Assembly (NCBI GenBank): GCA_032718475.1
Contig: JAUCBJ010009158.1
Coordinates: 1-64,000, forward strand
Direction: 5' to 3'
Origin: Nemertoderma westbladi
Taxonomy: Eukaryota > Animalia > Xenacoelomorpha
DNA length: 64,000 bases
Shown here: piece by piece, positions 23,071-54,418 of the stretch
Layout: each line of letters starts with the position of its first letter
Position numbering within the stretch: the first letter of the stretch is position 1
The notes under the pieces: generated by a model
Database searches by the model: none
Told to the model about the DNA's origin: nothing
What the model saw: the letters and a program-made list of their open reading frames with translations, nothing else
Translations under genes and position numbers: made by a program

Positions 23071-23121
23071 TTACCCCCAGTTTATATATAAACTCAATGT
23101 TTTTTATTATTTCACAATCCT

Positions 23122-27088: not shown

Positions 27089-27106
27089 TATTACAACTGA
27101 CTGAAA

Positions 27107-27118: not shown

Positions 27119-27369
27119 TATACGATTATCAAAACGCTCACTCTGTCAGTTCTATTATTCGTAGTTCGTTGTAATGTTAGGTAGGCCTACTATATTATCC
27201 AAACACATAGACCAGTACCGTACCGGTAACACTGTACCAACTACTGAACTACAGGTACCTACTTCCGTACTTAAGCCCGTCAGTCCCTCCTTCACCTAAC
27301 CAGTACCGGTAACACCCTAACCCTCGTCAGTTCTAGCCCTCTATACTGTATGTATATTATATTCTTATA
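27119..27369 (-). repeat. Gypsy-2 5' LTR
   Basis: Direct repeat of 22820-23070. Confidence 0.96.
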
Positions 27370-30300: not shown

Positions 30301-30811
30301 CACAAGAGGGCGCATTACTGTAAAGCGTTACATGATTATTTTTGTGTGCCAGAACGCTCGTGCCATTCACCTGGAACTAGCTGTTGACAAGTCATCAGAT
30401 GCCTTTATTAATGCCTATCGGCGATTTATATCACGTAGGGGCGTTCCAGTTGAAATAATATCTGATAATGGCACTAATTTTACAGGGGCAGAAGCTGATA
30501 TAACATTTTTTTCTGATCTTGAGCAGGGTCCATCCGGGACATACGTTAGAAATAAAGGAACCAAATGGCAATTTCTAACCCCCTATGCTTCACATACAGC
30601 AGGGTTACATGAACGAATAGTTCAATTAACCAGACGTATTTTAATAGCCGTATTAGAAAACCAGTTAGTCTCAGAGGATGTTTTACATACGTACAATGTA
30701 CATGGTCGAAGTGGAGGGTATTTTGAATAGCAGGCCAATAACCACTATCCATAACGATCCAAAGTCAAGTGAACCATTAACCCCTAATCATTTATTGTTA
30801 CAGAGAGCAGC
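27375..30811 (+). pseudogene. pol: BEL-A pol: RT, Pao-type RNase H, integrase core (frameshifts near 27500, 30080 and 30700)
   Basis: YLPHH, RIVNDAAA, DIEGMYHQI, FYVDD, FDPLG, FADASEKAFG, FWTDS, NPADLVSRG; [35 protein letters not shown]. Confidence 0.95.
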
Positions 30812-32062
30812 TGTTCGCGCTTTCAGACCTTTGGCAGTTTAACCCGCCAAATTAGGATGTCTTCTAGATAATAAATCGCTTTAGCCTCTAACAAGTATTT
30901 GATTCACTACACTAGTTGAAACCAATCTGTGCGCGATCATTCACCCGTTGGATATACCCGGGAGATTGATTTCGACAGCTTAATCGTATTGCTATGTAAG
31001 CCTAATGTATTATTCGACTGACAGTATTATATAATCTCTGACAATATTATTCACCTTCGGGGAATATTAACAGTTCCTTTAGGACGTGGCGCTCTATCTA
31101 TATAAACAGAGTTATGACTTAAACTACTCACAACGATATGGCTTAGTTACAATTCACATATATGGCGCATTCTTTAGGAAATGCTTAGTTATCAGTCTCA
31201 CTCATACACAGTGCCGCACAATACTGCACACTGATCTGCCGATCTTCACTGATTTTAGTCACATATAAAAGGAACACGGACCGAATCATGTAGGGTCTAT
31301 CAAATAACATTAGATTCACTTCAAACCACTTTAACATAAGTCACAATCGTTTATCTGTAACCTTTCTCTCTTACCTTCGGTATATCAAGAATATTGGGTT
31401 TCGGGGTTATTTCTCGTTATTCCAAATATAATAATTCATCCACAAATATAATGAATAACCGACAGCAAAGCAGTAATGTTAAGTTAAGTTGCACAGTATG
31501 GGCCAATTAACCAGTTTGTTTTGAGTTAAGACAATCAGTCAGTTTTGATAACGGATATATGTCCTTATAATTAAGCCTACTAGTGTAAGGCTAAAGCATA
31601 AAAGCACAAAATACTCTAAAGCCGTTCTTCCTGGCTTAGAATCACCAACAACACTGATAAGAATAACTATAAGAATACCAGCTACCCTTATTCCACGAAG
31701 CTCCCGTCCAACACAGAGAAAGAGCAGTGAGATAGGAAAATTCAGTTCAGTAGCTCTGTGATAGGTCAAAATCAAAGCTAACTCAAATTCTATTGGCAGA
31801 TACAGAAAGCTGCAACGTGGCAATATCAGCCGTTAGCCGTCGTCATGGTAGCGACACTGTTTTCAAGAGTATCGAGCTTTTTACGTCATGAAATTGCAGA
31901 TTATGTCCTCTAAAGTACAAATACAGTTCAAATACAGAAGAAATGACTTTTATGTCCTCTAAAACACCAGTACAGCAAGGACACGGCCTTTTTATGCCTG
32001 GCAAACCAACTACAGAGTACTTTAAGGGAAAATAACCGGTTAATGACGCAAAAGCTTTTACA
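30812..32062 (-). repeat. BEL-B 3' LTR
   Basis: Direct repeat of 41852-43101. Confidence 0.96.
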
Positions 32063-35000
32063 CCGCTCCCAGAAAATGGGATTGTCAGTCTATAAAATAT
32101 AAAAATCACAGTTTCTAAAACATAAAGATACTCTAAACAGTTAGTCTTTCTTACGCAGACGGCGTTTACGCAGTTTTTTGAGGCTAGCAAGAGTCTTTTT
32201 CTCTTTGGGGGGAGCCACTTTACTAGGAGGGCCATAACTCCTGGGTGAAGGGTGCAATATGATTGCATCAGAAGGTGTAGGATTGTGGTCGAGGTATCTG
32301 CCGTTTCGATATGCTTCTCCTCGAGCTGATTTTCCTCCGCTAGTAGCTGGATACGTTCATCCAAAAACTCTCGCAGAGAATAGGATCGTCCAAGTTCGAT
32401 AACTTCTTAGAGATTCTGGATTTCCCAATCGAATTGAGATAAGGCCAATTCGTTTATCGATTGGACTTACTGTTATAACTTACGTTTATCTGAACAAACG
32501 CAGGTTTCCTTTTTGATCTTTATAGAATAGCGTTTAACTCGTTTCGTACAACGCTCTCCTTCACCTTGATGAGGTGTTGTATCGCGTTAAACGTGGACGA
32601 CCATACGGTTGGATAGTGATATTAGGTGTCCGCGTCACAATCCGGCTAGGTAAGATGGGCGGCTAGCTAGAAATAACTGTCGGAGTGTTACCGATTAATT
32701 GTTAGGGTAGCACTAGATCTTTGAACAGTGAATACAGTCCGCGAGGATCCGCGACACCACCAGGATCGCAGGTCTGAGGTCCAACTAAGGAATGAGGAGG
32801 TTTGACCGAGTATTCCGGGACTCTGATCGTAGGTTTACTCCAGGATCGTTCGAGCCGAGTGAGCATAGGTGATACGTCAACAAGTTTCGCTCGAAACTCC
32901 AGTAAATATAACGAGTACAACTGTGTTTAACACAACGTTTCCGTGGATGTTTATGTCTTTCCGTTTATTGGCTGGGTCTAAGGCATTTATCGTAATAATA
33001 CCAAAGACGCACGTCTGTTAGGGGAAACGCGGGTGCTATTTATTTGTTGTTACAATGCTTCTATCAAGAATTCCAAATATACGTTGGAGTTACCGCGTCC
33101 ATTTGTTTCTTTAGTGTCTTTTCTTTCGAGTCGATTTCGAATAGAATTTTCGCATTCGAATTTCAGTTTATGGTTCCGACTCCGCTGGGTAGGATATATA
33201 GTCGACATAGTCCGTATTGTGTAAATCGATAGGATGATCAGTAGTTAAGAAGCCCATATACGTACCATTACGCTGCGTATATCGAGTAGCGAATTTTCTA
33301 TAGTCCAACTCGCGCGAGCTGCTCTTGGGACATTGGCGGTTCGATATAACGACCATCGTCCTCCGCAGCAGTTGGACTAACGTCGCCGCGTATTAAGCTA
33401 TCAACAAACGCTTGTAAAAGTAGAGTATATCTCTCCCCGATACCAAGACCATCTTCTATCAACTCCGTCATATCTGCTATATATGAGTTTATCCATATTA
33501 TAATGAGTTTATATTTAGGCGAGCGGACGTCGCTGCCTACCCCAATCAACCCCCGGACAGTACGAGATCCTCAGCGCCGATGTGTCGTCGCCGCTGTACT
33601 TTCGCCAATGACGTAGCCGCACAACGACAACGACAACCGGCACAAGTCACTCAACTGTCCGTCCCAAAGGCTTAGATGTACTTCAGGTTTTCCTTGGAGA
33701 GTTAGGTTACTTTTACGATTGCGACTAGCTACTGTAAACACACCTTAGCAGTAACATTCACCTATAAACTCACAAATACCACACAACTGGTCACAACTAC
33801 GCACATTCGGGCCATTTGTCCGTTAGTCAATGCCTTCCAGAATGTCACTGTATTATTATGTATCCTTGGATACTAGCAGTGCGCTATTTATTCCCTATGC
33901 TATTCAATGGGACAAGCTTTCTATTGTTCGTTTAACTCAATTCTAATTCTAGCGTGGTTGTTGCTATGGTGACATTATGTAAAGCTAGCGGTAGAATTAG
34001 GGTAATTCCAATGCATACAGATCTGGGATGTTATTTAATAGTAATTCTTTAATGGTCAATGTCCTGTTTTATACATGGCTTTATGAATTTTATCGGCTAT
34101 TGACCATGTTTGGGAGACTTTCGCACACTCATACGCATAATAAGATAAATCTCCGCTCCCTTGATCTATTAATTAATGGAATTTTGGGAATGTTACAAAT
34201 TGCGTAAAAATGGCAATTTATTAAATTCATTAAAAGGCATGAATTTAAATTTATTCCCTGAAATTTTATTATTTGATAATTAAATTGACATATTTTGATT
34301 CTAGAACATGTCTGGGGACACAAGATCCTTAATTCTATGAAAATTGTCTTTTTAAGAATATCGGTAAATGCTACGATATCTTAATTGACTAGAATTGTTG
34401 AAGGATCTGAATTTTACAGATTTTGATTTATTAGATTTGCAAATATTAAATAATTAATATTTGAGATGGGCACCGATTTATTCCAGAACTTGTCTGGGGA
34501 CGTTAACCACTGATTCTAAAATTTGTCTTTCAAGTATATCGGTGGGTGCCGCGATATCTTAATCGACTAGAATTGCAGATGGTCAAAGGGTTTAACAGAT
34601 TAATTTGCGTTGTACGCTACTGTTAAAGGGACATCACGCTACTATATGTATTATTTAATATACGGTATGAGAGCAATATCGCACGAAGCAATGTCAGTGT
34701 GAAGAGGCAAGTCGTTTCCAAGGTCTACCCAGAGCTTGGTTTAGCCGAGACACGAGGATCTGAACTTTGCATTCCTAATACTCTGCCTACCAATAATACT
34801 TAAATATAGTAGTGGCTTTATTGTACTTTAATAAGTACGGACATTTCATCTTACTGTAGTCACGTATTTATAATATGATACGGACAGTAAGGAAAGAGAA
34901 AAAGAATTATTTCTTGCCGTCGCATTAAATATAATATATACGTAATTAAGTAATAAACACGAATATATATTGCACTAATCTACTAAATAATCGCTAAAAT

Positions 35001-35123
35001 AACATTCTACTGAATAAAATTAAAGAAAACGATTATAATAAAATTACGTAGTAATACATACATAAATATAAAAATAATAAAATAATATAAAATAATAGAG
35101 TCACACACCCACTCCATATGTTG

Positions 35124-38100
35124 TTACGTTATGGAGTCCCTAGATGTTTGAAGGATTAGGGAGGTGGTCGTGGGAAGAGAATCTTGCCTTCCACAGTTTC
35201 CGGAGAGTCCTCCATTCCCTTCCGGTAAACACAAACGACCAGCTGGGCGATTGAGTCGCTGCATCCCGAATACAATTCCAGGTTTCCTCTTCGTCCTGGA
35301 ATAGTGACGATAGAAACATCGCTCTAAGTACACGACGGCCTTACAAAGCCGATTCCAGGAGCTATAGTGGTCCGTCGCTCCCTGCAGGAGAGGTAAGAGT
35401 CCCTGCGAGACGTCTGATGTTCCAGAGCTCCAATCGCTCCCTCTGATCTTCATGAAGGATCCACTCGCGGTGGGGAGGTCCAGATCCACGGCGTCGTCCC
35501 TGGCAATATGTAATACCGACAGATCTATCCCGGGTTCAAATAACTCCGATCCACCCGTCCGGGTTTTAGGTTTAACTTTCTCCGCTCCCTTGGCTGGTCT
35601 AATCTCAGTCGGAGTAAGATGGGGAGGCCATTCATCCTCCTTACTCAGGAAGTCGGGTTCACCTAACCGGTCTGTAGTATCTGTCAGTTCTTGAGGAGTT
35701 GCTCCTTTGGAAGCGATATCAGTTGGATTAAACTTCTTGGGGCAATATCTCCATTGATCTACATTGGAGCTAAGATTGTCATTATCTGAGGAGTGTGGTG
35801 TTCCCTCAGTTGGGTCGTCTCCCTCACTAGTATCATCTTCCCATTCACTCACCTGGCAGACGCGATCTTGAAGCAGTCTTTCTCTGAGCGTTCTTCGGGA
35901 AGGTCCAGTAAGGTACCAACCTACTCTAGTTCTTACCGCATAGGTCTGAAGTGGTTGCAGTTGAGTAGGTCGTTTCTCTAATGTCTCCAGCGCCTCATGC
36001 GCGTTTTGACCGATTAATATTTGTACTCCAGGATAATCGGTGTCGAATCTAGGGATGTTAAGTTGTTGGGCATGATCATCTTCGTCCCAATTATAAGGTT
36101 CCACTTGGGTGGTAGCGAAGTTCTTTATTGCCACCATTTTTACTGACCTTATACTGTATTCTCCTAGTTTATCCTGTGGAGTGGACAACTCACCTATATA
36201 ATAGTCGGCAGCTACAGTAGAATTCCAAACCGGCATGATCCCTGACATGTTTAGCTTGGTTCGGAACTTGGGTTGTCCAGCAAAGATGACTTCGGCTAGT
36301 TCTTTATCGATGAATGTTCCTGTGCTACCGGAGTCCAGGAGGGCGTTCACTATATAGCTCTTCTGAGGTCCGTGGACCCGTAACTGGACTACAGGAAATT
36401 CTCGGATTCCTATATTGGAAGTTGGCGCTTTCCAAGATGGTTGTTGATCTGAAGTAGTTAGGGTGAGGTCGCTGTCTGTGTCTTTCTCATACATGAGTGC
36501 TCGATACACTGCGGTGGTGTTTATTAAGTAACAGGATTCGTTTTCGTCGGAGAACTCGTCCGTATAGAATCCTTCCATCTCAGATTGATCAGTGTCGTTC
36601 ACATCACTGAATTGGACATGTAGTTCGGACTCACTTACCTGACTCGGGCTGTTTCGTTCGAATTCCGTGTGCAACAAGATATGATGTTTTGCGCCGCACT
36701 TTGCACACCTTGCGTCGGAGTAACAGGTTCGCCGTTGGTGTCCTCGTCTGAGGCAATTATAACACAACCGCTTATCCCACATGACTTCACGTCTATCCTT
36801 TAGTGATTTCCTCAGGAATTTATCACACGCATTTAAACGGTGGGGCCCGTCGCACAGCACACATTTGGGCTTGATGTTACTTACTTTAACATGTGCTGTG
36901 TGGTGCACACTTGTTCTTTCTTCGGGCTTTCTCACCTGAATTCTTTTAGGAGACGTAGGAGGGGTTTTTTGTACCGGTTCCCTTCTGTCATTGGGTCGAG
37001 ACTTGGATTTACTTACCTGATCTTTAGGCATTTTATTGACATAATAAGATCTGTCAGTGTCTTTCCCGCTGTCCTCTCCTTGAGAAGTCTGGCTTTCGCC
37101 ATCGTCTGTATAACACACTGGTGTTACTTTTCTCCTGGAAAGGGGTTTTTCACTTACCTTGTTTTCCGGTGTCTTCTCTCTGGATTGTTTGAGGAGTTGC
37201 AATTTCACTTCTCCATCCAGGAATGACATGAGATCAGCCATGGTAGGGTCTCGTCGTTGTTGTTCCATCATATATAGTACTTTCTTATCCCAGCGTGTGC
37301 CTACCCCACCTTTCGGTAAAGTAGAAGCCACAGCTCCAATGACCATAGAACTTTGGTATTCATGAGACTTACCTAACCAATCTAATTGTCTACAGATCTC
37401 TTGAATCTCATCGGAAAACTCTATTATCCCACTGCTGATGAACTTTCTGGGCGCTACTAATTTTGCATATAGATACTTAGCGATATTATTCCTATTACCA
37501 TACCTGATGTTTAGTGTGTCCCAAACTTGTCTTAATCCATCTGGATGTCCAATAAACTTTAACGCCATTAACTTGGGAGATCCTTCCAAGCACTCGATGA
37601 GGAATCTAAGTTTCTCTCCATTAGATAGGACAGAGTTCTGTATGTTATCTTTGTAATATTCATTAAAAGGTAACCATTTCATCTCATCTCCATTGAACTT
37701 AACGATCTCTCCCACCTTTACCGCTTGCCGGGCTTCGGTTCTAGCCATTTGACGCGTAAAACTTTCTTGGGCCATCGTGTTATTTAATATCGAGTTATCG
37801 GTATATAAATTTCTCGGATTATGATCCGGTCTATAGGGAATATCATTATCAACAGGTCTATAATTACCCTTAATAGGGTTCACTATAGGAGTTTCTACTT
37901 CGCTAGCAGTATAGATGCGTGTAGGCTCCACACCTTGCGCATGAGATACTTCAGACCTAACAGGTTGACACATTGTTACAAGGGGTGGTGGTATACCCTT
38001 TTGTAAATTTACTAATTTATCGCGTTCTAGCACGATATTTTGCTGCACTTCCTGCAACTCTAACCTACTTTCCTTTACGGTTCCCTTTAACTGTTGAACA

Positions 38101-39575
38101 GTCCCTTCTAACTCTCGGACCTGTTGGGAGGAGCGCATTTGATTCTCCTCCATCTTTCCGAGGAGAATGTCCATCCCCCGCCGTCTCTCGTCCACCCAAT
38201 CAACCGCCGAAACGGGATCCGCCAACGTTGTAGCGGGCGGACGAGGGACAACGGGCGACAAATCATGAATATTTCGCTCGGAGTCCAGAGCATGAACTGT
38301 CTCAGGGGCTGTTCTGCTGGGCACAGGTAGCTTAGTGCTGTGCAACGGGAATTGAGAGGTAGGTTCAGGGAGTACAGGTGTGTCTACGACCGAAAGGGTA
38401 GCTTCAGGAACAGGCCTAATTATTTCAGGCTCATCTACTATAGTAGGGAGTCTCTCTATTGTAATTATTTGGTCTGTGGGTTCTGTACTCGCTAAGTTGG
38501 TGTTATTTAGTTGCCTTCTAACAGCTGGAGGCAAATCAGGCAATTTCTGACGGTGGAATGTTCTTTTACGTCTGCTTAGGCGAGATCGATTTCCTCCGCC
38601 TTCAGGATCGGTAGTATCGCCTTCCTCAGATGATGTATACCCCTGTCTTTTGGGTGTAGATCGACTCATCATCTGCATATTACTAGCTGTTAACTGTTTA
38701 TTGAAGTTGTCTTGCCTCTCTTGAAGAATTTCCAACTCTAGTTGGGTTGCCTCTTCAGATGCCCTCCGTTCTGCTTCTACCACTGCCTCTGCTGTTGCCA
38801 GTGCCGCCTTTCTTTCCGCTTCGGCCTCTGCCACTGCCACTGCCACTGCCGCTTTTCTTTCGGCTTCTGCCGCTGCCACTGCTGCTGCCACTGCCGCTGT
38901 CTTTCTATCTTCTATACGTTTTTTCTTTACTTGTTCTTCCTGGACTCGTGTGATGCGGAGTTGTTCATCGTATTTAGCTTGATTCGCCGCTAACATTTCC
39001 GCATCGATTGCGTCCAGCACAAGCTTGGTTCCTTCACTATTAGGGCTAAGTCCATCTAACCTTCTCCTCAACTCGTCATCCCCTAAAAAACGTTGATAGT
39101 CTGACAGATAGATGTCAATGGCATCTCTCTTTTGCGGTTTCTCTGCCGTCGCTTCGCTTTCTTCTTGAGAAGAAGTGGCGTCGGTTGATTCTTCATAGGT
39201 TGGCCGCTCATCATAAACCTTATCCGCCATCTTCGCTCCGCGCTCGGGCGTCCGCTCAACAGTATCCGAACTACTGGAGCTGTCGGACCGCTGAGAAACA
39301 AGTTCCTGGCTCGCGGGTTGTTGCTGTTCCGCTGCTTCTTGGTCTCGCTTGACCTGAGCTCGAGTGCCTATGATAGACCTACGATGTTGGACCAGCCTCG
39401 GTTCTGTTATTACTACTGTAGGGATGACCTTGCTTACAGTAGGAGGGGACTTGGACTTTGGTCTCAGACGCTCTATACTCTTAGCTGAGTCCCAGATCTT
39501 TTTAAGACCCTGTCTAACACTCATTCTAGCACTTTCTAAGAGACTATCTGACAGTGATTGGGTTGTGTCAGACAT
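35124..39575 (-). CDS. gag: BEL-B Gag-protease polyprotein (1483 aa) with in-frame deletion of RT/RNase H and no integrase
   Basis: KFNGDEMKWLPF (DUF1759-type), CVLCDGPHRLNAC..CYNCLRRGH..CAKCGAKHHILLH, ALLDSGSTGTFI, ILIGQN, then a direct jump to the RNase H tail QWRYCP..NPTDIASKG. Confidence 0.93.
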   Translation of the reverse strand: MSDTTQSLSDSLLESARMSVRQGLKKIWDSAKSIERLRPKSKSPPTVSKVIPTVVITEPRLVQHRRSIIGTRAQVKRDQEAAEQQQPASQELVSQRSDSSSSSDTVERTPERGAKMADKVYDERPTYEESTDATSSQEESEATAEKPQKRDAIDIYLSDYQRFLGDDELRRRLDGLSPNSEGTKLVLDAIDAEMLAANQAKYDEQLRITRVQEEQVKKKRIEDRKTAAVAAAVAAAEAERKAAVAVAVAEAEAERKAALATAEAVVEAERRASEEATQLELEILQERQDNFNKQLTASNMQMMSRSTPKRQGYTSSEEGDTTDPEGGGNRSRLSRRKRTFHRQKLPDLPPAVRRQLNNTNLASTEPTDQIITIERLPTIVDEPEIIRPVPEATLSVVDTPVLPEPTSQFPLHSTKLPVPSRTAPETVHALDSERNIHDLSPVVPRPPATTLADPVSAVDWVDERRRGMDILLGKMEENQMRSSQQVRELEGTVQQLKGTVKESRLELQEVQQNIVLERDKLVNLQKGIPPPLVTMCQPVRSEVSHAQGVEPTRIYTASEVETPIVNPIKGNYRPVDNDIPYRPDHNPRNLYTDNSILNNTMAQESFTRQMARTEARQAVKVGEIVKFNGDEMKWLPFNEYYKDNIQNSVLSNGEKLRFLIECLEGSPKLMALKFIGHPDGLRQVWDTLNIRYGNRNNIAKYLYAKLVAPRKFISSGIIEFSDEIQEICRQLDWLGKSHEYQSSMVIGAVASTLPKGGVGTRWDKKVLYMMEQQRRDPTMADLMSFLDGEVKLQLLKQSREKTPENKVSEKPLSRRKVTPVCYTDDGESQTSQGEDSGKDTDRSYYVNKMPKDQVSKSKSRPNDRREPVQKTPPTSPKRIQVRKPEERTSVHHTAHVKVSNIKPKCVLCDGPHRLNACDKFLRKSLKDRREVMWDKRLCYNCLRRGHQRRTCYSDARCAKCGAKHHILLHTEFERNSPSQVSESELHVQFSDVNDTDQSEMEGFYTDEFSDENESCYLINTTAVYRALMYEKDTDSDLTLTTSDQQPSWKAPTSNIGIREFPVVQLRVHGPQKSYIVNALLDSGSTGTFIDKELAEVIFAGQPKFRTKLNMSGIMPVWNSTVAADYYIGELSTPQDKLGEYSIRSVKMVAIKNFATTQVEPYNWDEDDHAQQLNIPRFDTDYPGVQILIGQNAHEALETLEKRPTQLQPLQTYAVRTRVGWYLTGPSRRTLRERLLQDRVCQVSEWEDDTSEGDDPTEGTPHSSDNDNLSSNVDQWRYCPKKFNPTDIASKGATPQELTDTTDRLGEPDFLSKEDEWPPHLTPTEIRPAKGAEKVKPKTRTGGSELFEPGIDLSVLHIARDDAVDLDLPTASGSFMKIRGSDWSSGTSDVSQGLLPLLQGATDHYSSWNRLCKAVVYLERCFYRHYSRTKRKPGIVFGMQRLNRPAGRLCLPEGNGGLSGNCGRQDSLPTTTSLILQTSRDSIT

Positions 39576-40904
39576 ATTTACTTGTACAGTTGAATGCCTA
39601 CTGCTATGATTACAGCTAAAGCAAGTCTAGTAATTCAGTATCACTGTTAGCCTAGTAATTAATTACCGATACTGCTACTCAGTGTAGCGTGATATATATA
39701 ATATATTAGAATACCGGTATGCTTATAGTATATATAACTATATAAGTATTATTACAGACCAGGTTTATCACAGAATACCGGTACAATTTTAGCACAAATA
39801 TATATAAATATATAATAGGCCTATCGTGAATACCGGTATACAGCTTACACTTATAATGTATATATATAAGTATAATTATAGACGAGAATTAATTACAGAA
39901 TACCGGTATGGTTTCAACCTAAAATTTATAGAAATAAATATAATAAGCCTATCGTAAATACCGGTATGTCAATTATTTTAGAATAATTGAATTTCTGAAT
40001 TTTAAGGGTTACTTGGTTACTTTAACTTACTTTATTACCGTTATTTAAGCAGTAGTCCAACTGATATTGAGACCTAATTATTGTATGGCAGGCCTACTAT
40101 TTATAAATCGTTTGAGTTGATTTATAATATATATATACCCGTTTTAATGGGTTTTGTCAATGTTTGAAATAAATGTTATTATTTCTGGGGAGTAATCACT
40201 ACACAAAGCGGTGCGCTTTCAGTGAAGTGTTACTTATAGGACACTAAAACAAATAATTCTAATTTACCTAAGTTACTTAATACTACAAATTACGTACGAT
40301 TCGGGTTGAGATTACAATCTCTAAATAAACACAAAAATTTACAAAAAACACAAAATACGAATTTTCAGGGTAATTTTACAAGAAGTCTACAAACCAGCCT
40401 AACAAAGGGTTAGAATTCTGGTTATTACAACGGACAGGGTACTACGGTATTTGAAATAATAAGTAGTAGTAAATACACTGCGTTGTCCAGATAGGAAAAT
40501 ACCACCGCCTGACGACCTATAGCCGTATCGCTATAGGTTCTACGTTATGTATCACGGAGTGTTCCTACCTAGAAGTTAATAGAGCTAATCGAACGTGCCT
40601 ATCAACCACTTTACAACACAAATATAATGCCTACACTAATTACTTTCGGTAAGCACTGTACACTAAACCCTAAATTAGGTACGAGTACTTGTACAACATA
40701 TAATCAGTAGTTAAATATACTTGAACAGCTAAAAGAACCACGGCATCTGCTGGAGTGACCGGTGCACAAAATCACCAGTCTTTACCTACGCCAAGCAGCC
40801 CGTGTAGTACCGGGGTTAATTTAACTATAGCGGTATGTATAACAAACACAATTACTGTAGGAACAAACTTGGGGAATGAATGTTGCGGATAATCGCATAA
40901 ACTC

Positions 40905-41480
40905 TGAATAATAAATATTACGCTACGCGTACAAACTACTCAAACAAAATGCAGACCGAACACTGACAGACTACTATCAAGCCTAAACAAACTACGGTAT
41001 ATGCAGACTCCGAAATAATTAGGTAGTATGCGTTCTAACCCAGTAGTACGACTTATTCTTTAATTGGGGGTTTACCTTACAGCATTCGCTGCCCCTACTT
41101 CCTAACCGTTCTTTATCGGACAAGTGATCTACACACGCTGCAATCCGTTCAGACCTAATAACAGCCAGACAACTATCCAGCCTACAAATTATCTAAATAA
41201 AATTATACGCTACCCGTACAGACTTACACAAACAAAGTACAGACTAAACGATGGCAGACTACTCTCAAGCCTAAATAAACTACAGGACATGCAGACTCCG
41301 AAATAATTAGGTAGTATGCGTTCTAACCCAGTAGTACGACTTATTCTTTAATTGGGGGTTTACCTTACAGCATTCGCTGCCCCTTCTTCCTAACCGTTCT
41401 TTATCGGACAGGTGATCTACACACACTGCAATCCGTTCAGACTTAACAGCAATCAGACAACAGCTCAGCCTACAAATTGT
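40905..41480. repeat. ~290-bp tandem duplication in the BEL-B 5' leader
   Basis: ATGCAGACTCCGAAATAATTAGGTAG..CAGCCTACAAATT occurs at ~41001 and ~41289. Confidence 0.85.
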
Positions 41481-41840
41481 CTGTACAATCTGATCAGGCT
41501 TACACGTCTTCTGTTCAATACTGGCCTACAAACAAATAAAACTTGACAGAAATAAGTAAAATCTCAATAAAAAACCAGGGCGGCCGTTCCCTGATTAAGT
41601 ACTAAGACCTACCGGTATACAACAATCAAATCGAATAATACTAATGTACTTATACGGGAAGTACCGGTTAGGACAGTTAGGCCTACGGACCTACAGAAGT
41701 ACCGGTTCTGGCAGTTGGACCTACGGGCCTACAGCAGTACCAGTTCTTGCAGTTGGGCCTACTGACCTACAGAAGTACCGGTTCAAGTTTACCGGTTGAC
41801 CGGTATTTTCAACTTTATTGCTTACTGCAATAAAGAAGCA

Positions 41841-41851
41841 ATATCCGTTAT
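41841..41851 (-). promoter_or_regulatory. BEL-B putative self-priming PBS
   Basis: ATAACGGATAT directly follows the 5' LTR on the minus strand and is complementary to LTR 42587-42597. No TGG-type PBS. Confidence 0.65.
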
Positions 41852-43101
41852 TGTTCGCGCTTTCAGACCTTTGGCAGTTTAACCCGCCAAATTAGGATGT
41901 CTTCTAGATAATAAATCGCTTTAGCCTCTAACAAGTATTTGATTCACTACACTAGTTGAAACCAATCTGTGCGCGATCATTCACCGTTGGATATACCCGG
42001 GAGATTGATTTCGACAGCTTAATCGTATTGCTATGTAAGCCTAATGTATTATTCGACTGACAGTATTATATAATCTCTGACAATATTATTCACCTTCGGG
42101 GAATATTAACAGTTCCTTTAGGACGTGGCGCTCTATCTATATAAACAGAGTTATGACTTAAACTACTCACAACGATATGGATTAGTTACAATTCACATAT
42201 ATGGCGCATTCTTTAGGAAATGCTTCGTTATCAGTCTCACTCATACACAGTGCCGCACAATACTGCACACTGATCTGCCGATCTTCACTGATTTTAGACA
42301 CATATAAAAGGAACACGGACCGAATCATGTAGGGTCTATCAAATAACATTAGATTCACTTCAAACCACTTTAACATAAGTCACAATCGTTTATCTGTAAC
42401 CTTTCTCTCTTACCTTCGGTATATCAAGAATATTGGGTTTCGGGGTTATTTCTCGTTATTCCAAATATAATAATTCATCCACAAATATAATGAATAACCG
42501 ACAGCAAAGCAGTAATGTTAAGTTAAGTTGCACAGTATGGGCCAATTAACCAGTTTGTTTTGAGTTAAGACAATCAGTCAGTTTTGATAACGGATATATG
42601 TCCTTATAATTAAGCCTACTAGTGTAAGGCTAAAGCATAAAAGCACAAAATACTCTAAAGCCGTTCTTCCTGGCTTAGAATCACCAACAACACTGATAAG
42701 AATAACTATAAGAATACCAGCTACCCTTATTCCACGAAGCTCCCGTCCAACACAGAGAAAGAGCAGTGAGATAGGAAAATTCAGTTCAGTAGCTCTGTGA
42801 TAGGTCAAAATCAAAGCTAACTCAAATTCTATTGGCAGATACAGAAAGCTGCAACGTGGCAATATCAGCCGTTAGCCGTCGTCATGGTAGCGACACTGTT
42901 TTCAAGAGTATCGAGCTTTTTACGTCATGAAATTGCAGATTATGTCCTCTAAAGTACAAATACAGTTCAAATACAGAAGAAATGACTTTTATGTCCTCTA
43001 AAACACCAGTACAGCAAGGACACGGCCTTTTTATGCCTGGCAAACCAACTACAGAGTACTTTAAGGGAAAATAACCGGTTAATGACGCAAAAGCTTTTAC
43101 A
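41852..43101 (-). repeat. BEL-B 5' LTR
   Basis: Direct repeat of 30812-32062. Confidence 0.96.
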
Positions 43102-43458
43102 GCAGCTTATCATGTCCCAGTGGATTCACAAGATGATAACGACATCTACTCAACAAAGACATGGAAGCAAGGTCAGATACTAGCGACTCGCTTTTGGAAC
43201 GAATGGATAACTGGTTATATCTGTCTTCTTCAAGACAGAAAGGACTGGACACGACAACAGCGTGATGTGAAAGTCAATGACGTTGTTCTTATCTCACAAG
43301 AAATTATCCCTCGATCACAGTGGCCTTGGGGACGGATTACACGTGTGTACCCTGATGAATACGGCAATGTTCGTTCTGTCGACATTCTAACCCATAGCAG
43401 TGGAACCATTTATAAACGTTCTATACATGACCTTATTATGCTTGAGGCAGACATATAA
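43102..43458 (+). pseudogene. BEL-A integrase C-terminus (DUF5641-type)
   Basis: RFWNEWITGYI..LQDRKDW..DVVLI..WPWGRITRVYPDEYGNVRSVDI..KRSIHDL. Confidence 0.93.
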
Positions 43459-44621: not shown

Positions 44622-44971
44622 TGTTGGTGTAAGTACACTGTTGGTGTAATTGATCCAGCAGTTCAACTACGCGTAGCCCTAGTTCACATGCACACAGCAT
44701 GGATATGTATATATATGCTTACCGGTACCTACCGCCATCTTTATGCATTTGCTGTTTACCTACTGCTGTACTGGTTAGCAAAGTAGTACTTACCTTTACC
44801 GGTCTGTTGCACATTACCTGATTACCGTGTACCGGTACCGCTGCTGTGCTGTGGTGTTATCTTATATATATACACTATATCAGTTATATGATTATTATCT
44901 ATCCTATCTGATATCAGTTGTTGTTGTTACAACCAACCTACAGTTACCAGGTTACCCTTTTACCTTTGGCG

Positions 44972-44985
44972 TGGTGGCAGCGGTG
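44972..44985 (+). promoter_or_regulatory. PBS complementary to the tRNA-Leu 3' end
   Basis: TGGTGGCAGCGGTG is the complement of CACCGCTGCCA-CCA, the 3' end of metazoan tRNA-Leu(AAG/TAG). Confidence 0.85.
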
Positions 44986-45297
44986 CGCTACGTTCTTACG
45001 TTCTCATACTGTGATACCTACAATCCACACCTTACCGCAACAGACCCGTGGATTGTACTCATTTCTGCCTTCCACTTACGCTTCACTACTGCAGTACCGG
45101 TAGGCCTACCAGTCAACCTTCTCGTACACCCCAGTCCAGGGTTGTATCAGGGCACATAGGCCTACTTATCAGTTTATATTCAGACATTCGTTCAGGTTCA
45201 GCTTCACTACCGGTAGACATTTCACACACTCCAGTCTGCCAATCCAGGGTTGCAGGGCACATAGCAGCATAGGCCTATCACTCTCACAAACTGAACA

Positions 45298-48200
45298 ATG
45301 GCTCTAAAAGCTCCGAAATTACTCCCTCTTACCAAGACGGAAAGTATCAGTTCCTATGAGGCCTGGCGGGCCAATTTAATTTACAACCTTGCCCTGGATC
45401 CGGAGTTTGCACGTTTCACCGATCCTACCGCCGTGTGGTTGAAACAGTCACATATCACACCCACACGCGGTCTTGCCCGTCCCTGTCAATCGTCGTCGCA
45501 CAGCTATTCAACAATGTACTTCATTACAACTGATGTTAGGCCAGATTGCCAACTACGCACCTATTATAGCTCGGAATTCTATTGTTCGTGACTCTACTTC
45601 CCTCTCTTCTGTGTGGCAAGCCATACGTCTGCACTATGGTTTTCAGTCCTCTGGTGCTCAATTCCTGGCCTTTTGTGACATCAAGTTAGAACACGAGGAG
45701 CGCCCTGAAGATCTATTTCAGCGCCTCCTGGCGTTTACAGATGATAACCTTCTTAAACATGATGGTGGTATCTCACACCATGGTCTTATACCGGATATTG
45801 ATGAGGAAGTAACCCCCTCCCTAGAAAACTTTGTTGTACTTACCTGGCTTAGATTAATGCACCCAGACCTCCCCCGTTTAGTACAACAACGTTATGGTAC
45901 ATTACTCCGGTCCCGTACTCTTGCTTCAATTAAGTCTGAGGTCTCACAAGCACTTAGTTCCCTCCTTGACGAGCTTCAAACTTCTGCAGAGGTAAGAACT
46001 TTTCGGTCTTATACTCGCGATTCTCGCTCATTTGGCTCAGCCAATGCACCTAGGTCAACAGGACGGGCAGCTACACGACTACCACGTTGCTGTCCTTTGT
46101 GTTCCCAGGCAAAGCGATCCCCCACTGATCACTTCCTTAGTAACTGCAAGTTCCTACCAGAATCTGATCGCCGTTACCTTGCCCGTGCACGACTTGTGCA
46201 CATTGATGATTCTGAGTTTGATCATATTCCCCATATCGAGCTTCAGCCTGAACCAGAGGAAACCCGATCCCCCTCAATCCAACGAGTTGCAGTACATTCT
46301 AGTCCTATCTTCGAAGCTGCCATTCATGGAAAAACAGTCCCTCTTCTTATTGATAGTGGAGCAGAATCCAATTTAATTTCTAGCATTACTGCCAAACGTA
46401 TCGGTGTCCATATATCCCCTAACAACCTACAGATTCCTGCACAGGCTGATGGATCCCCACTCACAGGTGTTATGGGTGAAAGCCGTTTTACCCTAACCCG
46501 CCGCAGTCTTTCCTTCCAATTCCATGGCTTAGTTGTATCTGATCTTGGTACCCCAATTCTGGCTGGTATGCCATTCCTGTCTGTCAATGATATTACCTTA
46601 CGCCCAGCTCGTTCCTTAATTACCTTTGTGGATGGTTCTACCTATGAGTATGGTAGTGGCTCTCGCCCACCTCCTACTGTCCGCCGTGTTAGTCCTTATT
46701 TGCTTAGGGCCCCACCTTGTTCCACAGTAGTCCTTCCTGGTGAATCCCTCCAGCTCACCCTCCCAACAGACCTTCAGGCTTCCTCGGCTGTACTTATCGC
46801 GCCCCACAGAGTGAATGATATCCTCCATTATGAGTCTGCCCCAAAGTGGATTCGACCAACATTATGTATGGTCTCAAATGGTGCTTTAATGCTTCCTAAC
46901 CATTCCACCCACCCAGTAAAAGTCACGAGGAACTCTCATTTGTGTTCTGTTATTGCTACTAACCCAACTGTCCCCTCTGATTTAAATCCAACTGTCCTGT
47001 TTACCACACCCACCCAAACAAGTCGCACTACTACTGATAAACCTACATACCATATTGACTCTGTCCAGTTAGACCCAGATTGTATTACCAGGAACGAGCT
47101 TGTTTCCATGATATATTGAAAGAATATCAGGATGTGTTCGACCCCTCCTTCCCGGGTTACAATGGACAGGCTGGCCCTTTTGAGTCTGTGGTTAATGTTG
47201 GCCCCTCCTTGCCCCCCCAACATAAGGGACGTATACCCCAATATTCACGTGACCGTCTTGTTGAGTTACAATCCCGATTTGATGCCCTGGAACAGTTAGG
47301 AGTTTTTGCAACCCCTGAGGCCGCTGGTGTCACAGTAGAGTATTTAAACCCATCTTTTCTTGTGGCAAAACCGAATGGAGGGACACGTCTCGTCACTGCT
47401 TTTACAGAGGTAGCCAAGTATTGTAAGCCTCCCCCTGCATTGCTACCTGACGTGGATTCCACTCTTCGTTCCCTTGGCCGTTTTAAATATCTCATTAAAT
47501 CAGATCTAACCAGTGCTTTCTTTCAGATACCCTTACAGCATGCTTCAAAGCGTTTTTGTGGCGTTGTTACCCCATTCCGTGGTGTTCGTGTTTATCAACG
47601 CTGCGCCATGGGGATGCCAGGCTCAGAAACTGCCCTGGATGAGTTGATGACACGTGTTCTTGGTGACTTACTGTGCAAGGGTAATGTCTTAAAGCTGGCT
47701 GATGATCTATATTGCGGGGGTGACACCATTTCTGATCTACTTGTCACTTTCTCTGCTCTTCTCACTTCCCTTAAGAATTGTGATCTTCGCCTTTCAGCAT
47801 CTAAGACTGTAATATGCCCTCGTACCACCACAATTCTTGGATGGCAATGGTCTAACGGTACTCTTTCTGCCTCATCCCATATAACATCTGCACTGTCAAG
47901 TTGTCCTTCTCCAACTACAACACGATCCCTTCGATCCTTTCTTGGATCTTATAAAGTATTGGCACGAGTCTTGCCACACTGTTCCGCCTTAGTGGGTCCA
48001 TTAGACACTCTACTCACTGAGAAACCTGGTGATAACCTTGAGTGGACACCAGAATTACTCTCTATATTTCGCCGAGCCCAGGCTGCAATAAAGTCATGCC
48101 GTTCAATTACAATCCCCAGTCCTTCAGATGAGCTTTACATTGTAACTGATGCTGCCTCTAGTATTGATGGCCTTGGAGCTGTAATGTATGCCAAACGGGA

Positions 48201-50130
48201 CTCTACCTTACATGTTGCTGGTTTCTTTTCTGTTAAACTTAAACAACATCAACACAGTTGGCTTCCATGCGAGTTAGAGGCTTTAGCCATCGCTGCTGCT
48301 GTCACCCACTTTGCACCATATATAGTTGCTTCGAGTAAACCATCCCGGGTTCTTACTGACAGCAAACCCTGTGTCGATGCTTTTCAGAAACTCTCACGTG
48401 GAGCATACTCAAGTAGTCCACGACTTTCTACCTTCCTTACTGTCGCAAGCCAATATCTAGTTTCCATCGCACACATCAAGGGTTCGTCTAACCTTCCAGC
48501 CGACTTTCAAAGTCGCAATGTAGTTCAATGTGACCTCCAGTCATGTCAGGTATGTTCATTTGTAGCTGATACTGCTCCCTCACCAGTAATCCGTAGTACA
48601 CCTCATGTTCTCACTCCCATAACCCCACCTGTCCAATCTCCAAGTCTTCCCAACCAAACCTGTTCACTGCCTCAACCCCAACTACTTACGGCAGAGAGTC
48701 GTCCCCTCTATGCAAGTCGATCAGCTTGGTTGGTTACTCAGCAAGAGTGCCCTGACCTGCGGCGTACCCATGCCCATCTGCTACAAGGAACCCGCCCAAC
48801 TAAGAAGGATACTCATAGTCGTGACATTAAACGTTACCTTGGCTGTTGTACTGTTGCTCGTGATGGCTTAATTGTTGTCAAGCGGGAACGTCCCTTTTCC
48901 ATGCCAGTTGAGCATATTTTAGTTCCCAGGCACTCACTTTTGGGTCTCCTTACCTCTTTACATTTAGAGTTGCAACACCCTTCAAAGGCCCAATTGCGAT
49001 CTATGTTTACTCGCTACTTCCATGCCTTAGATATAGACCGTTCTATCACTGCTGTGTCCAGCCAGTGTCACCAATGCGTTTCATTATCTACTGCCCCCCG
49101 ACGTGTTATTCCCCAGTCCACAGGTGAACCTCCTGCCACTTTAGGAATTTCATTTGCTGCAGACGTAGTTCGTCGTCACTCACAATACATCCTTCTCTTA
49201 CGTGAGTGTACTTCTAGTTTTACAGCCACTTGCATTATTCCAGATGAACGCCATGAAACACTGCGTGATGCTCTTATAGTACTAGGATCTGGATTATGTC
49301 CCCTAACTGGCCCATGTGCCATTATCCGTACAGATCCTGCACCTGGATTTCAGGCCCTCGTTGATGACCCCATTCTTGTCCAACATCGACTCCGTATTGA
49401 GATAGGTCGCCGTAAGAATCCTGATAAAAATCCAGTTGCAGAACGTGCGATACAAGAACTTTTAATGGAATTACACAAGCTTCGTCCTTCAGGTGGCCCT
49501 TACTCATCAACAATTATTGCGATAGCTACTGCTAATCTTAATTCCAGATTACGATCACCAGGCCTATCAGCGCAAGAGATCCTATTTCAAAGGGATCAAT
49601 TTACCGGGGAACAGATCCCCATCTGCGATCTTGACCTGATTGACCAACAACATGACCGTCGATCGGCTAATCACCTCCCAAGTGCTCAATCCAAGACTCC
49701 CAAGCCTATGAAGAATGTTCCCCAACACTCCATCTCCGTTGGTGATTTAGTATACCTATACGCCGATCCTGTAGCTCTACGTTCTCGACCTCGGTATATC
49801 GTTGCCACAGTGGATGGTGATTGGTGTTCTGTGAGAAAGTTTGTGGGCAATCAGTTACGTGCCCATGCTTACCGTGTCCGTAAAGCTGATTGCTTCCTTG
49901 TTCCATCTATGCCCACTCTTACTACCATCGATAATGATCCTAATTCATCTGATGAGGATCTCTCTGCCGAGTATACGTCACCAACAACTAGTCCAGATGG
50001 ATGCGTTGATACTGCTGTTGAACCCATCCCCAGTATGGACAACGATACTCTGTTTCGTAACGTGGATGGCGAATATTCGTTATCACCACCTATTCCCAAT
50101 AAGTCTCCTCCACGTCTCGAGAGATATTAA
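45298..50130 (+). pseudogene. pol: Gypsy-3 gag-pol with frameshifts near 45475 and 47095
   Basis: CPLC..HFLSNC knuckle; LIDSGAESN protease; SDLTSAFFQIPL, MGMPGSE and KLADD RT; IVTDAAS, CELEAL and LTDSKP RNase H; H-x4-H..CHQC, AADV, RTDPA and VAERAIQE integrase. Confidence 0.93.
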
Positions 50131-50631
50131 ATTCCTCATAATTTTACCTCTATATACTTAGTACGCTAATAGTTTGCTTAGTTTCTTTGTTATTGGTCTA
50201 CTTATACTCATGAAGTCAAGCCAGTCAAACTCCTCATTCATTGATTTGCTTTTAATTTGTATCACACTTTAGACTCAAGATTACTCCTTCTCTAGTGATA
50301 TATACATCTATCACACTTGCGGTATATTACGCCTTTTGCTTCTCTTAATTATATCATTTCCGTTGATATCTTGCATTTATAGATATATATAGGATAGGTG
50401 TAGCAGTTCACCCAATATATTATTTTTGTTACGCACTGAGTTATCTATCTGAATCATTGGTACAATGTTATGCAACACTAAGGCGCTTTGTGTCATACCG
50501 ATAACTTTTAGTTATGACTTACATGATTCGTTTACTTTTTGGATACTTGCAATTACATATATAATTGAGTTAGATCTTGTGGTTATAGTATCTTTAGTGT
50601 TTATAGCTTCGCTATGTAGAAAAAGGAATTA

Positions 50632-50986
50632 CGCCAGACCCGACCCAGTACACTGTTGGTGTAATTGATCCAGCAGTTCAACTACGCGTAGCCCTAGTTC
50701 ACATGCACACAGCATGGATATGTATATATATGCTTACCGGTACCTACCGCCATCTTTATGCATTTGCTGTTTACCTACTGCTGTACTGGTTAGCAAAGTA
50801 GTACTTACCTTTACCGGTCTGTTGCACATTACCTGATTACCGTGTACCGGTACCGCTGCTGTGCTGTGGTGTTATCTTATATATATACACTATATCAGTT
50901 ATATGATTATTATCTATCCTATCTGATATCAGTTGTTGTTGTTACAACCAACCTACAGTTACCAGGTTACCCTTTTACCTTTGGCG
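50632..50986 (+). repeat. Gypsy-3 3' LTR with CGCCA..TGGCG termini
   Basis: Begins 3 nt after the PPT. Right end is fixed by divergence from the 5' LTR exactly at the PBS. Left end is inferred from the terminal inverted repeat. Confidence 0.8.
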
Positions 50987-51138
50987 GAAGATGAAAAGAA
51001 AAAGAGAGATGAGCGTGATATATTAAAGACAAAACAGACAATGGAAAATAAATTTCATAAAGTTATGAATATTTTGAAAGGAATACAAAAACAGAAAATG
51101 AAGAAAATTTGAGTGAGAAAGAGGAATAGGACAATGAG

Positions 51139-52119
51139 ATGGAGAATGAAAATAGTGAGGGTCAGGATGAAGTTGAAGAGAGTGAGGTTGAGAACGAAGA
51201 AAGTGAAGATCAGGAAGAGGACAAAGAAAGTAAAGGTCAGGAGGAGGGTGAAGAAAGCGAAGGTCAGGTAGAGAATGAAGAAAGTGAAGAACAGGAAGAG
51301 GATGAAGATAGTGAAGAACAGGAAGAGGATGAAGAATGCGAAGGTGGGGAAGAGGATGAAGAAAGTGACGGCCAGAAAGAGGATGAAGAAAGTGAAGGTC
51401 AGGAAGAGGACAAAGAAAGTGAAGGTCAGGAAGAGGGTGAAGAAAGCGAAGGTCTGGAAGAGAATGAAGAAAGTGAAGGTCAGGAAGAGGGTGAAGAAAG
51501 TGAAGAACATGAAGAGGATGAAGAATGCGAAGGTGGGGAAGATGATGAAGAAAGTGAAGGTCAGGAAGAGGACGAAGAAAGTGAGGAACAAGAAAATAAA
51601 GAAAGTGATGAACAAGAAGATGAAGAAAGTGAAGATCAGGAAAGTGAAGAAGAGGATGAAAATGATAATAATGAGGAAATATTGAGACAATTACTCGGAA
51701 ATAAGAATAAATTGCTGACAATTATTAAACATTTGAAGGAAAATGAATTAAATAAAGAGGTTACATTGACCCAAGTTCTAGGAAGTAAAATTAAATTACA
51801 GAAATTTATTAAACATTTAGAAGAGAATGATGAAAATAAAGAAGAGATATTGAGACAAATATTAGGAAACAAAAATCAAATGCGGAAATTTATTAAACAA
51901 ATGGAAGAAAATGAGGAAAATAGAGAAGAGATATTAAGACAGGTTCTGGGAAATAAAAGTAAATTACTGAAAATTATTGAACAATTGAATAAAATTAAGA
52001 AACAGTTGGGTAATGAGGAAGATGAAACTAAAGTAAATCAACCAGCTTTTACTAATTTTCGAAGACCTATGATAAAAAACTCTCGTTCAGTAAATGCCCG
52101 CGCAGGACGACGCTATTGA
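51139..52119 (+). CDS. Uncharacterised acidic repeat protein (9-aa EEDEESEGQ repeats plus four 28-aa helical repeats); probably the 3' part of a disrupted gene
   Basis: 326 open codons. The 28-aa repeats keep the motif ExILRQxLGNKxKLxKxIxxL despite nucleotide divergence. Coding-like sequence continues upstream to the LTR at 50987 across a stop and frameshift. Confidence 0.55.
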   Translation: MENENSEGQDEVEESEVENEESEDQEEDKESKGQEEGEESEGQVENEESEEQEEDEDSEEQEEDEECEGGEEDEESDGQKEDEESEGQEEDKESEGQEEGEESEGLEENEESEGQEEGEESEEHEEDEECEGGEDDEESEGQEEDEESEEQENKESDEQEDEESEDQESEEEDENDNNEEILRQLLGNKNKLLTIIKHLKENELNKEVTLTQVLGSKIKLQKFIKHLEENDENKEEILRQILGNKNQMRKFIKQMEENEENREEILRQVLGNKSKLLKIIEQLNKIKKQLGNEEDETKVNQPAFTNFRRPMIKNSRSVNARAGRRY

Positions 52120-52315: not shown

Positions 52316-52634
52316 ATGTTTTTATAATATACTTTGGAGAATTAGTCGACTAAGTCATAATTTTTAAAACTTTAAATAAGGGTTGAGTAATTTTATAAAG
52401 TTAAGAAGAGTGAATCAATGGAGGCAACCTGAAGTCTAATCTCTTGGCCTTTAATCACATTAACTCCCAAGGTTGCATACTATCACTATAGCTGGGAGAG
52501 TCGAAGCTAGTGTACACTAGAGACAGCCAAGAGATAGGAAAAATAATAATGCTCTTCTAGGGTTCGAACTCACGAAGTTCTAATTAGAAAACTAAGCAAA
52601 TGATCAGCTTGAAGGACTTAGACCCTTAATCTGA

Positions 52635-53037
52635 GCCTCAGTGAGGCATAGTCTGTGCCTCATTACCTCAGTGAGGCATAGTCTGTGCCTCAGTGAGGCA
52701 TAGTCTGTGCCTCAATGCCTCAGTGAGGCATATTCTGTGCCTTAAATCCACAGTGAGGCATAGTCCATGCTTCAGTGCCTCAGTGAGACATAGTCTGTGC
52801 CTCAGTGCCTAGGTGAGGCATAGTCTGTGCCTCAGTGCCTCAGTGAGGAATAGTGTGTGCCTCAGTGCCTCAGTGAGGCATAGTCTGTGCATCAGTGCCT
52901 CAGTGAGGCATAGTCTGTGCCTCAGTGCCGCAGTGAGGCATAGTCTGTGCCTCAGTGAGGCATAGTCTGTGCCTCAGTGCCTCAGTGAGGCATAGTCTGT
53001 GCCTCAGTGCCTCAGTGAGGCATAGTCTGTGCCTCAG
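52635..53037. repeat. Palindromic minisatellite, ~14 units of 30 bp (some 22 bp)
   Basis: Unit CAGTGAGGCATAGTCTGTGCCTCAGTGCCT, built from TGCCTCA/TGAGGCA inverted heptamers. Confidence 0.93.
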
Positions 53038-53089
53038 GTCTTAAATCTCAAGTCTGTCCCTTTAGGAGTGCCTCAGGTCTTAAATCCGA

Positions 53090-53970
53090 GTCTTTAGCAG
53101 CAGGCTGGAGAACTGCGGACCGATCAACCTCCTCAGTAAAGTATAGCCTATGTCATAGTTGATGCCTACCAAGTTTCAGCCTAAATGGATTAAAAACAAA
53201 CAATCAAATGAGATCAGGTTTTCACTTTGAGAGATTTCGCCCTCTAGCGGCAGACTGGGGAACTTCAGACCACTCTACGACTCCGTAAAAGATATAGCCT
53301 ATGCTGCAGTAGATGCCTACCGAGTTTAAACCTAAGGGGATTGTAAATAGCAAAGTTAGAGAAGATGTTAATTTTCAGATAATATGCCCTCTAGCGGCAG
53401 ACTATAGAACTGCAGATGTCTGGATATAGGTAAGAGTAATTAGTAATCAGAGGTGTCACGAGAGGGGGCGGGGCGCTTGGATACAACTAGTATTAAAACC
53501 TGCTGCTTTGTTAAGGCAAATTGGGGGTCAAAGGTCAACGATTAAGCTGTCTGGATATAGATAAGAGTAATTAGTTACCAGTAAGGGAGCTATACCTTAG
53601 GGCTAAATATAGCGAAGCGGTGTCAACAATGACGTCATTCGTTAAGTAATTTATAAACTAATTATTGGTAAATCTAAAATTAGAAATTAAAATTAATTTA
53701 AANNNNNNNNNNNNNNNNNNNNNNNNNNNNNNNNNNNNNNNNNNNNNNNNNNNNNNNNNNNNNNNNNNNNNNNNNNNNNNNNNNNNNNNNNNNNNNNNNN
53801 NNTGATTTATGGCAGATGGTATTACTACATCGATAGATACATACAACACATTAGATAGATACATACATACACATTAGATACATACAGACATACATACTGT
53901 GTACACACTTAGATAGATAAATACACACCAAAACTCAAAAAAATACCCCGCCTATACGAGACGGGTTCAT
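53090..53970 (+). repeat. ~148-bp degenerate tandem units and, after the gap, a GATA/CATA microsatellite plus terminal hairpin; Helentron/DINE-1-like non-autonomous element(s)
   Basis: GCCCTCTAGCGGCAGACT at 53239 and 53386; GATGCCTACCRAGTTT repeated; microsatellite 53830-53920 followed by the CCCGCCT-ATACG-AGACGGG hairpin. Continuity across the gap is unknown. Confidence 0.5.
53703..53802. other. Assembly gap (100 N)
   Basis: Run of exactly 100 N, usually a placeholder of unknown size. Confidence 0.99.
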
Positions 53971-54418
53971 AATTTACCATTTCTTAAAGGTTGTATTGAT
54001 AGAATGGAGAAACTACCGTTCTATTGGTCGCTATACTTTTAGGCCTATGCTAATTTTGCAGTTTTCTGGGCTGCAAGGCCTGTTAGTAAAGGTTGCCTTG
54101 GGAAGAGGTCAGCAGCTGGATATGTCCAAGGATTCTTTAACTCCTTAGGGCGACTGGAAACTCAGTTATTCCGAGGACAGTTAGAACCTCAAGCACAGGG
54201 ACCACTTCTGTATCAAGTGAGGGAGCGGATATTAAGAATTAGGTTAATTTTGTCGGCATTCGAAGAAGCCTCAAAGAGGATTCAAGATATATCACTGCGC
54301 GTGGCAGTAAAGATCTGGTTTCAATGAATCAATGACAAAGTTCATGGAACAACTACATGGAGAGCTGAGTTAGCAGATCAACTCGTTTACAGAGAATCCA
54401 CTGACACCATTCTTTCGT

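Follow-up and report, generated by a model that had tools for sequence, protein, structure and literature searches.

A candidate self-priming BEL/Pao-derived retrotransposon of Nemertoderma westbladi and a self-complementary primer-site signature among its relatives

The analysed window, a stretch of 64,000 nt of Nemertoderma westbladi DNA, contains on its minus strand a BEL/Pao-derived LTR retrotransposon (30812-43101) in which the 11 bases at the primer-binding position are exactly complementary to a segment of its own LTR. This 11-base match is a real, non-random feature. With a probability of roughly 0.6, the layout of the sequence points to Tf1-like self-priming of the element from the contiguous 11-mer, with the reverse transcriptase of a partner; that the element self-primes in either the contiguous or a splice-joint form is likely. 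Judged from distant relatives, the self-priming signature is probably common to many BEL/Pao families.

Structure of the element and its primer-binding position

The element is bounded by a 5′ LTR of 1250 bp (41852-43101, minus strand, TGT...ACA) and a 3′ LTR of 1251 bp (30812-32062, minus), which show 4 differences (3 substitutions and one 1-base indel; 99.7% identity). A target-site duplication, GCTGC, flanks the element on the minus strand (upstream copy 43102-43106, downstream copy 30807-30811), and a polypurine tract (32063-32070, minus) directly adjoins the 3′ LTR, with zero spacer. The element inserted recently, into a second BEL/Pao element that lies on the plus strand and was hit in its integrase region. 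Given the near-identical LTRs and the intact target duplication, the primer site would therefore have been in recent use.

A single frame of 1500 codons (35124-39626, minus) encodes a gag of the DUF1759 type with three zinc knuckles (residues 922-986) and a protease motif at 1096, and then jumps from the protease to the RNase H end, of which only a remnant is present. Three zinc knuckles are a BEL signature, and homologues carry the Pao family PF05380. In a domain search of 30812-43101 reverse transcriptase and integrase were absent, and the 3′ region of about 3 kb (32071-35123, minus) is mostly non-coding, with short frames, none of which has a Pfam family. The element thus shows the TG...CA LTR pair, target duplication, purine tract, gag and protease of BEL/Pao elements, but of their reverse transcriptase, RNase H and integrase it has nothing save the RNase H-end remnant. 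It is a non-autonomous BEL/Pao derivative and not a full member; the original description had overlooked the non-autonomous nature of the copy. Because this copy has no reverse transcriptase, its priming would have to use the enzyme of a partner. A degraded sister copy on the plus strand (54374-61300) contains remnants of reverse transcriptase and of the Pao RNase H, retains PF05380 and is 72% identical to the element in DNA sequence across 2.2 kb. No LTR was found for the sister copy, upstream of which lies an assembly gap (53703-53802). A protein search with the element returned only distant relatives (23-49% identity), and viral contigs contained neither a BEL/Pao relative by protein search nor a match to the LTR-end pattern.

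The primer-binding position (41841-41851, minus) adjoins the LTR-terminal CA and has no TGG; the sequence ATAACGGATAT (41851-41841, minus) comes straight after the 5′ LTR, with zero spacer. Its exact complement, the candidate self-primer, lies within the 5′ LTR at 42587-42597 (minus; LTR positions 505-515), and the identical 11-mer is found in the 3′ LTR at 31548-31558 (minus). LTR alignment and match search thus confirm the arrangement originally described, i.e., no spacer, no TGG and an exact complement at 42587-42597. The perfect match comprises exactly 11 bases and is no longer, and its polarity is such that the 3′ end of the candidate primer falls on the first base past the LTR. As in the Tf1/sushi group, the site adjoins the LTR and is perfectly complementary to an LTR segment; the 18-nt site for tRNA-Arg or tRNA-Gly of the ICTV description is absent from the element. 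Because the first TGG downstream of the 5′ LTR occurs at offset 109, the sequence rules out that a tRNA 3′ end primes at the customary position. No tRNA genes were found in the 64,000-nt window, and an Rfam search over 40500-43200 gave no credible match (one hit, E 0.69, far below the cut-off).

When the LTR was resampled with preservation of its dinucleotides, a match of at least 11 bases arose at offset 0 in 11 of 20,000 sequences, close to the ∼3e-4 estimated beforehand, and at any offset from 0 to 4 in 24 of 20,000. Of 9,747 internal positions of the element, 1 gives an equally good match.

Other repeats are present in the window. A Ty3/gypsy element at 6046-10366 (minus) has identical LTRs of 171 bp and no TGG site; an 18-base stretch that starts one base past its LTR is exactly complementary to LTR positions 90-107, and 0 of 20,000 resampled LTRs exceed 12. 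No chromodomain was detected in it by Pfam, and it is a second self-priming candidate, possibly outside the chromoviruses. A gypsy element on the plus strand (44632-50986) combines identical LTRs of 340 bp with a primer site of the usual TGG type; it shows no self-complement at offsets 0-4 and serves as a negative control within the window. The LTR element at 22819-27369 (minus), with DUF7047 and a hit of the RVT_3-type RNase H, has LTR ends other than TG...CA and no TGG directly past the LTR, and is predicted to pair with its own LTR in an interrupted manner (-22.2 kcal/mol). An older BEL/Pao element on the plus strand (12432-43443), for which no LTRs were found, is interrupted by sequences nested within it, namely two elements of LINE type, a palindrome of 1.1 kb (20573-21672), the 22819-27369 element and the element 30812-43101. 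In addition, a 2-kb repeat with units of ∼350 bp occurs at 771-2717 and 62021-63997 (94% identity, 61 kb apart), and tandem arrays are located at 51109-51675 and 52599-53067.

Self-complementary sites among BEL/Pao relatives

The relatives comprise 79 BEL/Pao loci from a metagenome scan, taken from the best 80 of 531 loci confirmed in part of the collection; 33 of them have a long-range repeat and 46 do not. From these 33, a controlled set of 14 loci was picked by eye, in which the LTR-like end was fixed by comparing two copies (for L047 this end rests on the family mate L060); the 19 repeat-bearing loci without an independently fixed LTR end stand outside the controlled count. L047 and L060, as well as L029 and L032, belong to the same or close families, so that about 12 of the 14 loci are independent. 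In the spliced form of the test the complement of the post-LTR sequence bridges a donor of the type GT[AG]AG and an acceptor of the type [CT]AG, both within the LTR of the same locus.

A self-complement of 10-15 bases, at offset 0-4 from the LTR end, is present in 12 of the 14 relatives. In ten (10-15 bases) it bridges a splice joint that is predicted within the LTR, and in two, L004 and L057, it is contiguous, with lengths of 11 and 10. L007 is the only one of the 14 with a TGG (tRNA) site, and L065, the LTRs of which are 86% alike, has neither a tRNA site nor a self-complement by the strict test. In the control of 206 mismatched LTR/site pairs, a length of 10 was reached by one pair in the spliced test and by none in the contiguous test. 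Three pairs of loci show compensatory changes. The exon-1 end reads CGAT with ATCG in L016 and CGTC with GACG in L038, the LTR ends of both being taken from a blind scan; L048 and L049 differ by one paired change in exon 2, and L005 and L014 by two paired changes. The covariation of post-LTR 11-mer and LTR-internal site on which the original prediction was to be judged is thus seen among distant BEL/Pao relatives (12/14, with three compensating pairs), and the conventional TGG site that might have persisted in relatives occurs in just 1 of 14. Because the self-match is seen in most of the distant relatives whose repeat end can be defined, it is likely that members of the group use their own RNA to begin copying.

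The primer segments of the 12 relatives share a context, in that 11 of 12 end in AC or AT and 11 of 12 are then followed by C. The 11-mer of the element likewise has AT at its end and C as the next base; this context occurs at 27 of the 1,238 positions of its LTR. Offset 0 occurs in just one family of relatives, that of L047 and L060, which is also the sole one in which the purine tract adjoins the LTR, as it does in the element; outside this zero class, purine-tract spacer and offset are only weakly correlated. The complement lies 86-216 bases from the LTR end in the 12 relatives, whereas this distance is 735 bases in the element. In L005 a TATA run begins 31 bases before the complement, and in most relatives there is none upstream of it. 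In several relatives the 5′ edge of the complement coincides with a pyrimidine-purine, initiator-like step; such steps are too common to count.

A blind scan was applied to 14 regions (13 of the 19 left-out loci and L005). Spliced matches of 10-12 came out in 7 regions and contiguous ones of 11-14 in 3, and the other 4 reached no more than 9-10; the scan chooses the LTR end by best score, without control, and is not counted as proof. One locus, L035 (L035:214-620), contains a contiguous 14-base complement and another of 12 bases; a TATA run precedes the upstream match by ∼38 bases, and downstream of the primer there is an intron-like segment. The order of these parts is that proposed for the element, the end of L035 being one that does not come from an independent comparison. 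In L039, a contiguous complement opens with the six bases that close exon 1 in the spliced family L047, a pattern as expected from intron loss; the two loci are not close on the tree. In this tree (85 sequences, midpoint root, without references from the named clades Pao, Sinbad/Sailor, Suzu, Tas, Bel, Flow and Dan; L040, L076 and L079 dropped) the sister copy of the element is placed next to the spliced clade, on a long branch and at a support of 0.16.

Predicted RNA features and alternative explanations

Bases immediately upstream of the 11-mer (42598-42607, minus) are predicted to lengthen the duplex by 5-7 pairs beyond a bulge, and a predicted 9-pair hairpin (41813-41835, minus) lies just downstream of the 11-base site. 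In a long-range folding prediction without shuffle control, the pair probabilities of the helix are 0.61-1.0 for an RNA starting at LTR position 505 or 495 and 0.56-0.99 for a start at position 470; for a start at position 406 or 300 the probability is 0. Stems in U5 and a leader hairpin are also predicted, on folding of the element with no shuffle control or alignment. A non-canonical TATA-like run (42608-42603) begins just 11 bases upstream of the 11-mer and is not among the runs listed by a strict TATA scan of the LTR; if it were the promoter, the transcription start would lie downstream of the 11-mer.

Sequence variation at the site is seen in X1, a public run represented by contigs only, the RNA nature of which is a guess. 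Two of the 11 bases, those at 41851 and 41847, are changed in the X1 contig that carries the commoner allele (16.6 of 22.3 depth). A compensating A>T at 42587 is not found among all six A>T variants of X1, at a cover of ∼4-8 there; with 40 of the 56 variants in view, a change at 42591 is possible among the remaining 16. Uncompensated, the changes would reduce the duplex from -17.2 to -11.1 kcal/mol. The X1 contigs, which have no cover at 42480-42569, cross the LTR-leader boundary, and the changes among those listed are only point changes.

The best donor-like motif of the LTR, AAG followed by GTAAGA (42408-42413, minus; LTR position 689), lies downstream of the 11-mer, and a weak acceptor-like TAG with its five following bases is found at 42026-42033 (minus). 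A splice joint within the 11-mer itself is ruled out, neither a donor nor an acceptor bordering it. The element might still prime from a splice joint as most relatives do, with the contiguous 11-mer being secondary: joining of the donor at 42413 to the acceptor at 42031 would bring together four and five bases that match post-LTR offsets 8-16. Such a joint would use the strongest donor motif available, would end 174 bases from the LTR end, within the 86-216 of the relatives, and would be untouched by the two X1 changes; its score is equalled by 6 of 1,500 random internal positions. However, it offers just 9 perfect bases, starts at offset 8 instead of the 0-4 of the relatives, and forms a duplex of -12.2 kcal/mol as compared with -17.2 kcal/mol for the 11-mer. 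The acceptor is missed by a pyrimidine-tract scan, and the adjoining purine tract of the element agrees with offset 0. Use of this joint as the primer is improbable.

A different view of the pairing accepts it as real and selected, but regards it as structural (closure of the leader, a signal for dimerization or packaging, or a switch masking the site), with some other RNA as the primer: an internal fragment of a tRNA, a small RNA or a short LTR transcript acting in trans. There are precedents in the accessible text of the sources: half-tRNA primers exist in Ty1/copia groups (PMC6317226), and in the fungal GalEa elements a hairpin replaces the tRNA site, with no known primer (PMC5445492). The matched sequence nevertheless varies by family and tracks the LTR of that family, as a fixed host RNA would not, and in every case no more than 0-4 bases separate the LTR end from the start of the match; a purely structural role is thus unlikely. 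Least probable, and indeed very improbable, is that the match in the element arose by chance or that the true primer site was removed by a local deletion. The match was one window-wide look among many features, and X1 indicates variation of the site within the family, both of which would suit such an origin. It is opposed by the rarity of the match at offset 0 (11/20,000 by chance), by the intact LTR end with its target duplication and near-identical LTRs, by the X1 contigs that span the boundary between LTR and leader and show, among the changes listed, point changes alone, and by the 13 of 14 relatives that likewise lack TGG.

Proposed mechanism and relation to known systems

Self-priming from the contiguous 11-mer would require that transcription begins at 42597 or a few bases before. 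The 5′ segment of the RNA would then fold back onto the primer site over ∼735 bases of R-U5, and the reverse transcriptase/RNase H of an autonomous relative would cleave after the 11th paired base. The new 3′ end would prime minus-strand DNA exactly at the LTR boundary, with extension from this boundary followed by transfer at the 3′ R. Because the primer would be copied in plus-strand synthesis, the two sites would stay complementary. The element would thus represent the contiguous form of a signature that relatives mostly bear across a predicted splice joint. As to the Tf1-like self-priming with an 11-nt duplex proposed originally, the Tf1 geometry and the covariation in relatives favour it; the need for the enzyme of a partner and the predicted splice joint of most relatives had not been foreseen. 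The nematode BEL element Cer7 is reported to encode its own tRNA-like primer.

In Tf1, the RNA's initial 11 bases pair with the primer site and are released by RNase H cleavage, as described in the accessible part of PMC7175516; the same priming is proposed for Tj1 of S. japonicus in the available text of PMC4600332, and the self-primer of Tf2 depends on the start site according to that of PMC5341516. As far as these partial texts show, Tf1 and Tf2 (Schizosaccharomyces pombe) and Tj1 resemble the element in having a perfect LTR-derived complement and no tRNA site, and the 11 bases are as in Tf1. The Tf1/sushi group is nevertheless Ty3/gypsy, with chromovirus-related proteins, while the proteins of the element are of the BEL/Pao type, so that it is not a member. 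Unlike Tf1, the element is non-autonomous, its presumed R-U5 is far longer (∼735 bases), and its relatives use a predicted splice joint. In Tf1 the position of the 5′ end and the RNase H cleavage have been demonstrated, whereas in the element they are proposed from its sequence layout.

Self-priming has also been predicted for the plant lineages Tcn1 (Ty3/gypsy) and TAR/Houba/Osr-1 (Ty1/copia), according to the accessible portion of PMC6317226. As for the element, the prediction is from sequence only and touches more than one superfamily in that portion of the source (PMC6317226), but it concerns plant elements and other superfamilies. The same portion names Bel-Pao once, with no claim of self-priming. 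The ICTV profile of the Belpaoviridae gives an 18-nt primer site for tRNA-Arg or tRNA-Gly (PMC8742986). The element agrees with this profile in its LTRs, purine tract, gag (capsid-type domain and zinc knuckles) and protease, and the Pao RNase H family of the Belpaoviridae is present in its sister copy; it differs in having no tRNA site and in missing reverse transcriptase and integrase. The fungal GalEa Copia elements (Conserved Hairpin Site) and bivalve TRIMs, in the available parts of their descriptions, likewise have no tRNA site and a hairpin just downstream of the LTR. For GalEa no LTR complement was found by the authors, in the accessible text of PMC5445492, whereas one is present in the element.

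A term search of the Sinbad paper (PMC554778), a BEL/Pao survey (PMC3118150) and a mollusc survey (PMC6238403) gave no mention of PBS, tRNA or priming, and the available parts of PMC3601003, PMC6934838, PMC8220671, PMC5445492, PMC13524379 and PMC2864245 contain no self-priming BEL/Pao element. Nor did the literature search as a whole, the scope of which lay outside most subscription journals, Repbase reports, GyDB and supplements, find one. The self-priming route was thus found described only in other retrotransposon groups and not in BEL/Pao, the replication of which is given in the reference description as tRNA-primed and poorly understood.

Priming of the element would accordingly be a variant of a known mechanism, the steps at the RNA level being proposed ones. 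For the group as a whole, the balance of the observations tips slightly towards a large BEL/Pao branch that abandoned tRNA priming, in which most families would build the self-primer by splicing an LTR intron, so that host splicing would license reverse transcription; the element would be a contiguous, splicing-free form, the intron having been lost from the joint or lying downstream. If true, the splice-joint form would tie reverse transcription to host splicing, for which no description was found in the literature examined. The signature would explain the failure of primer-site finders on many BEL/Pao elements, and would provide a sequence rule for locating BEL/Pao LTR ends and probable start sites. 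If the signature is indeed the primer, self-priming would reach a third LTR superfamily, and would do so in animals.
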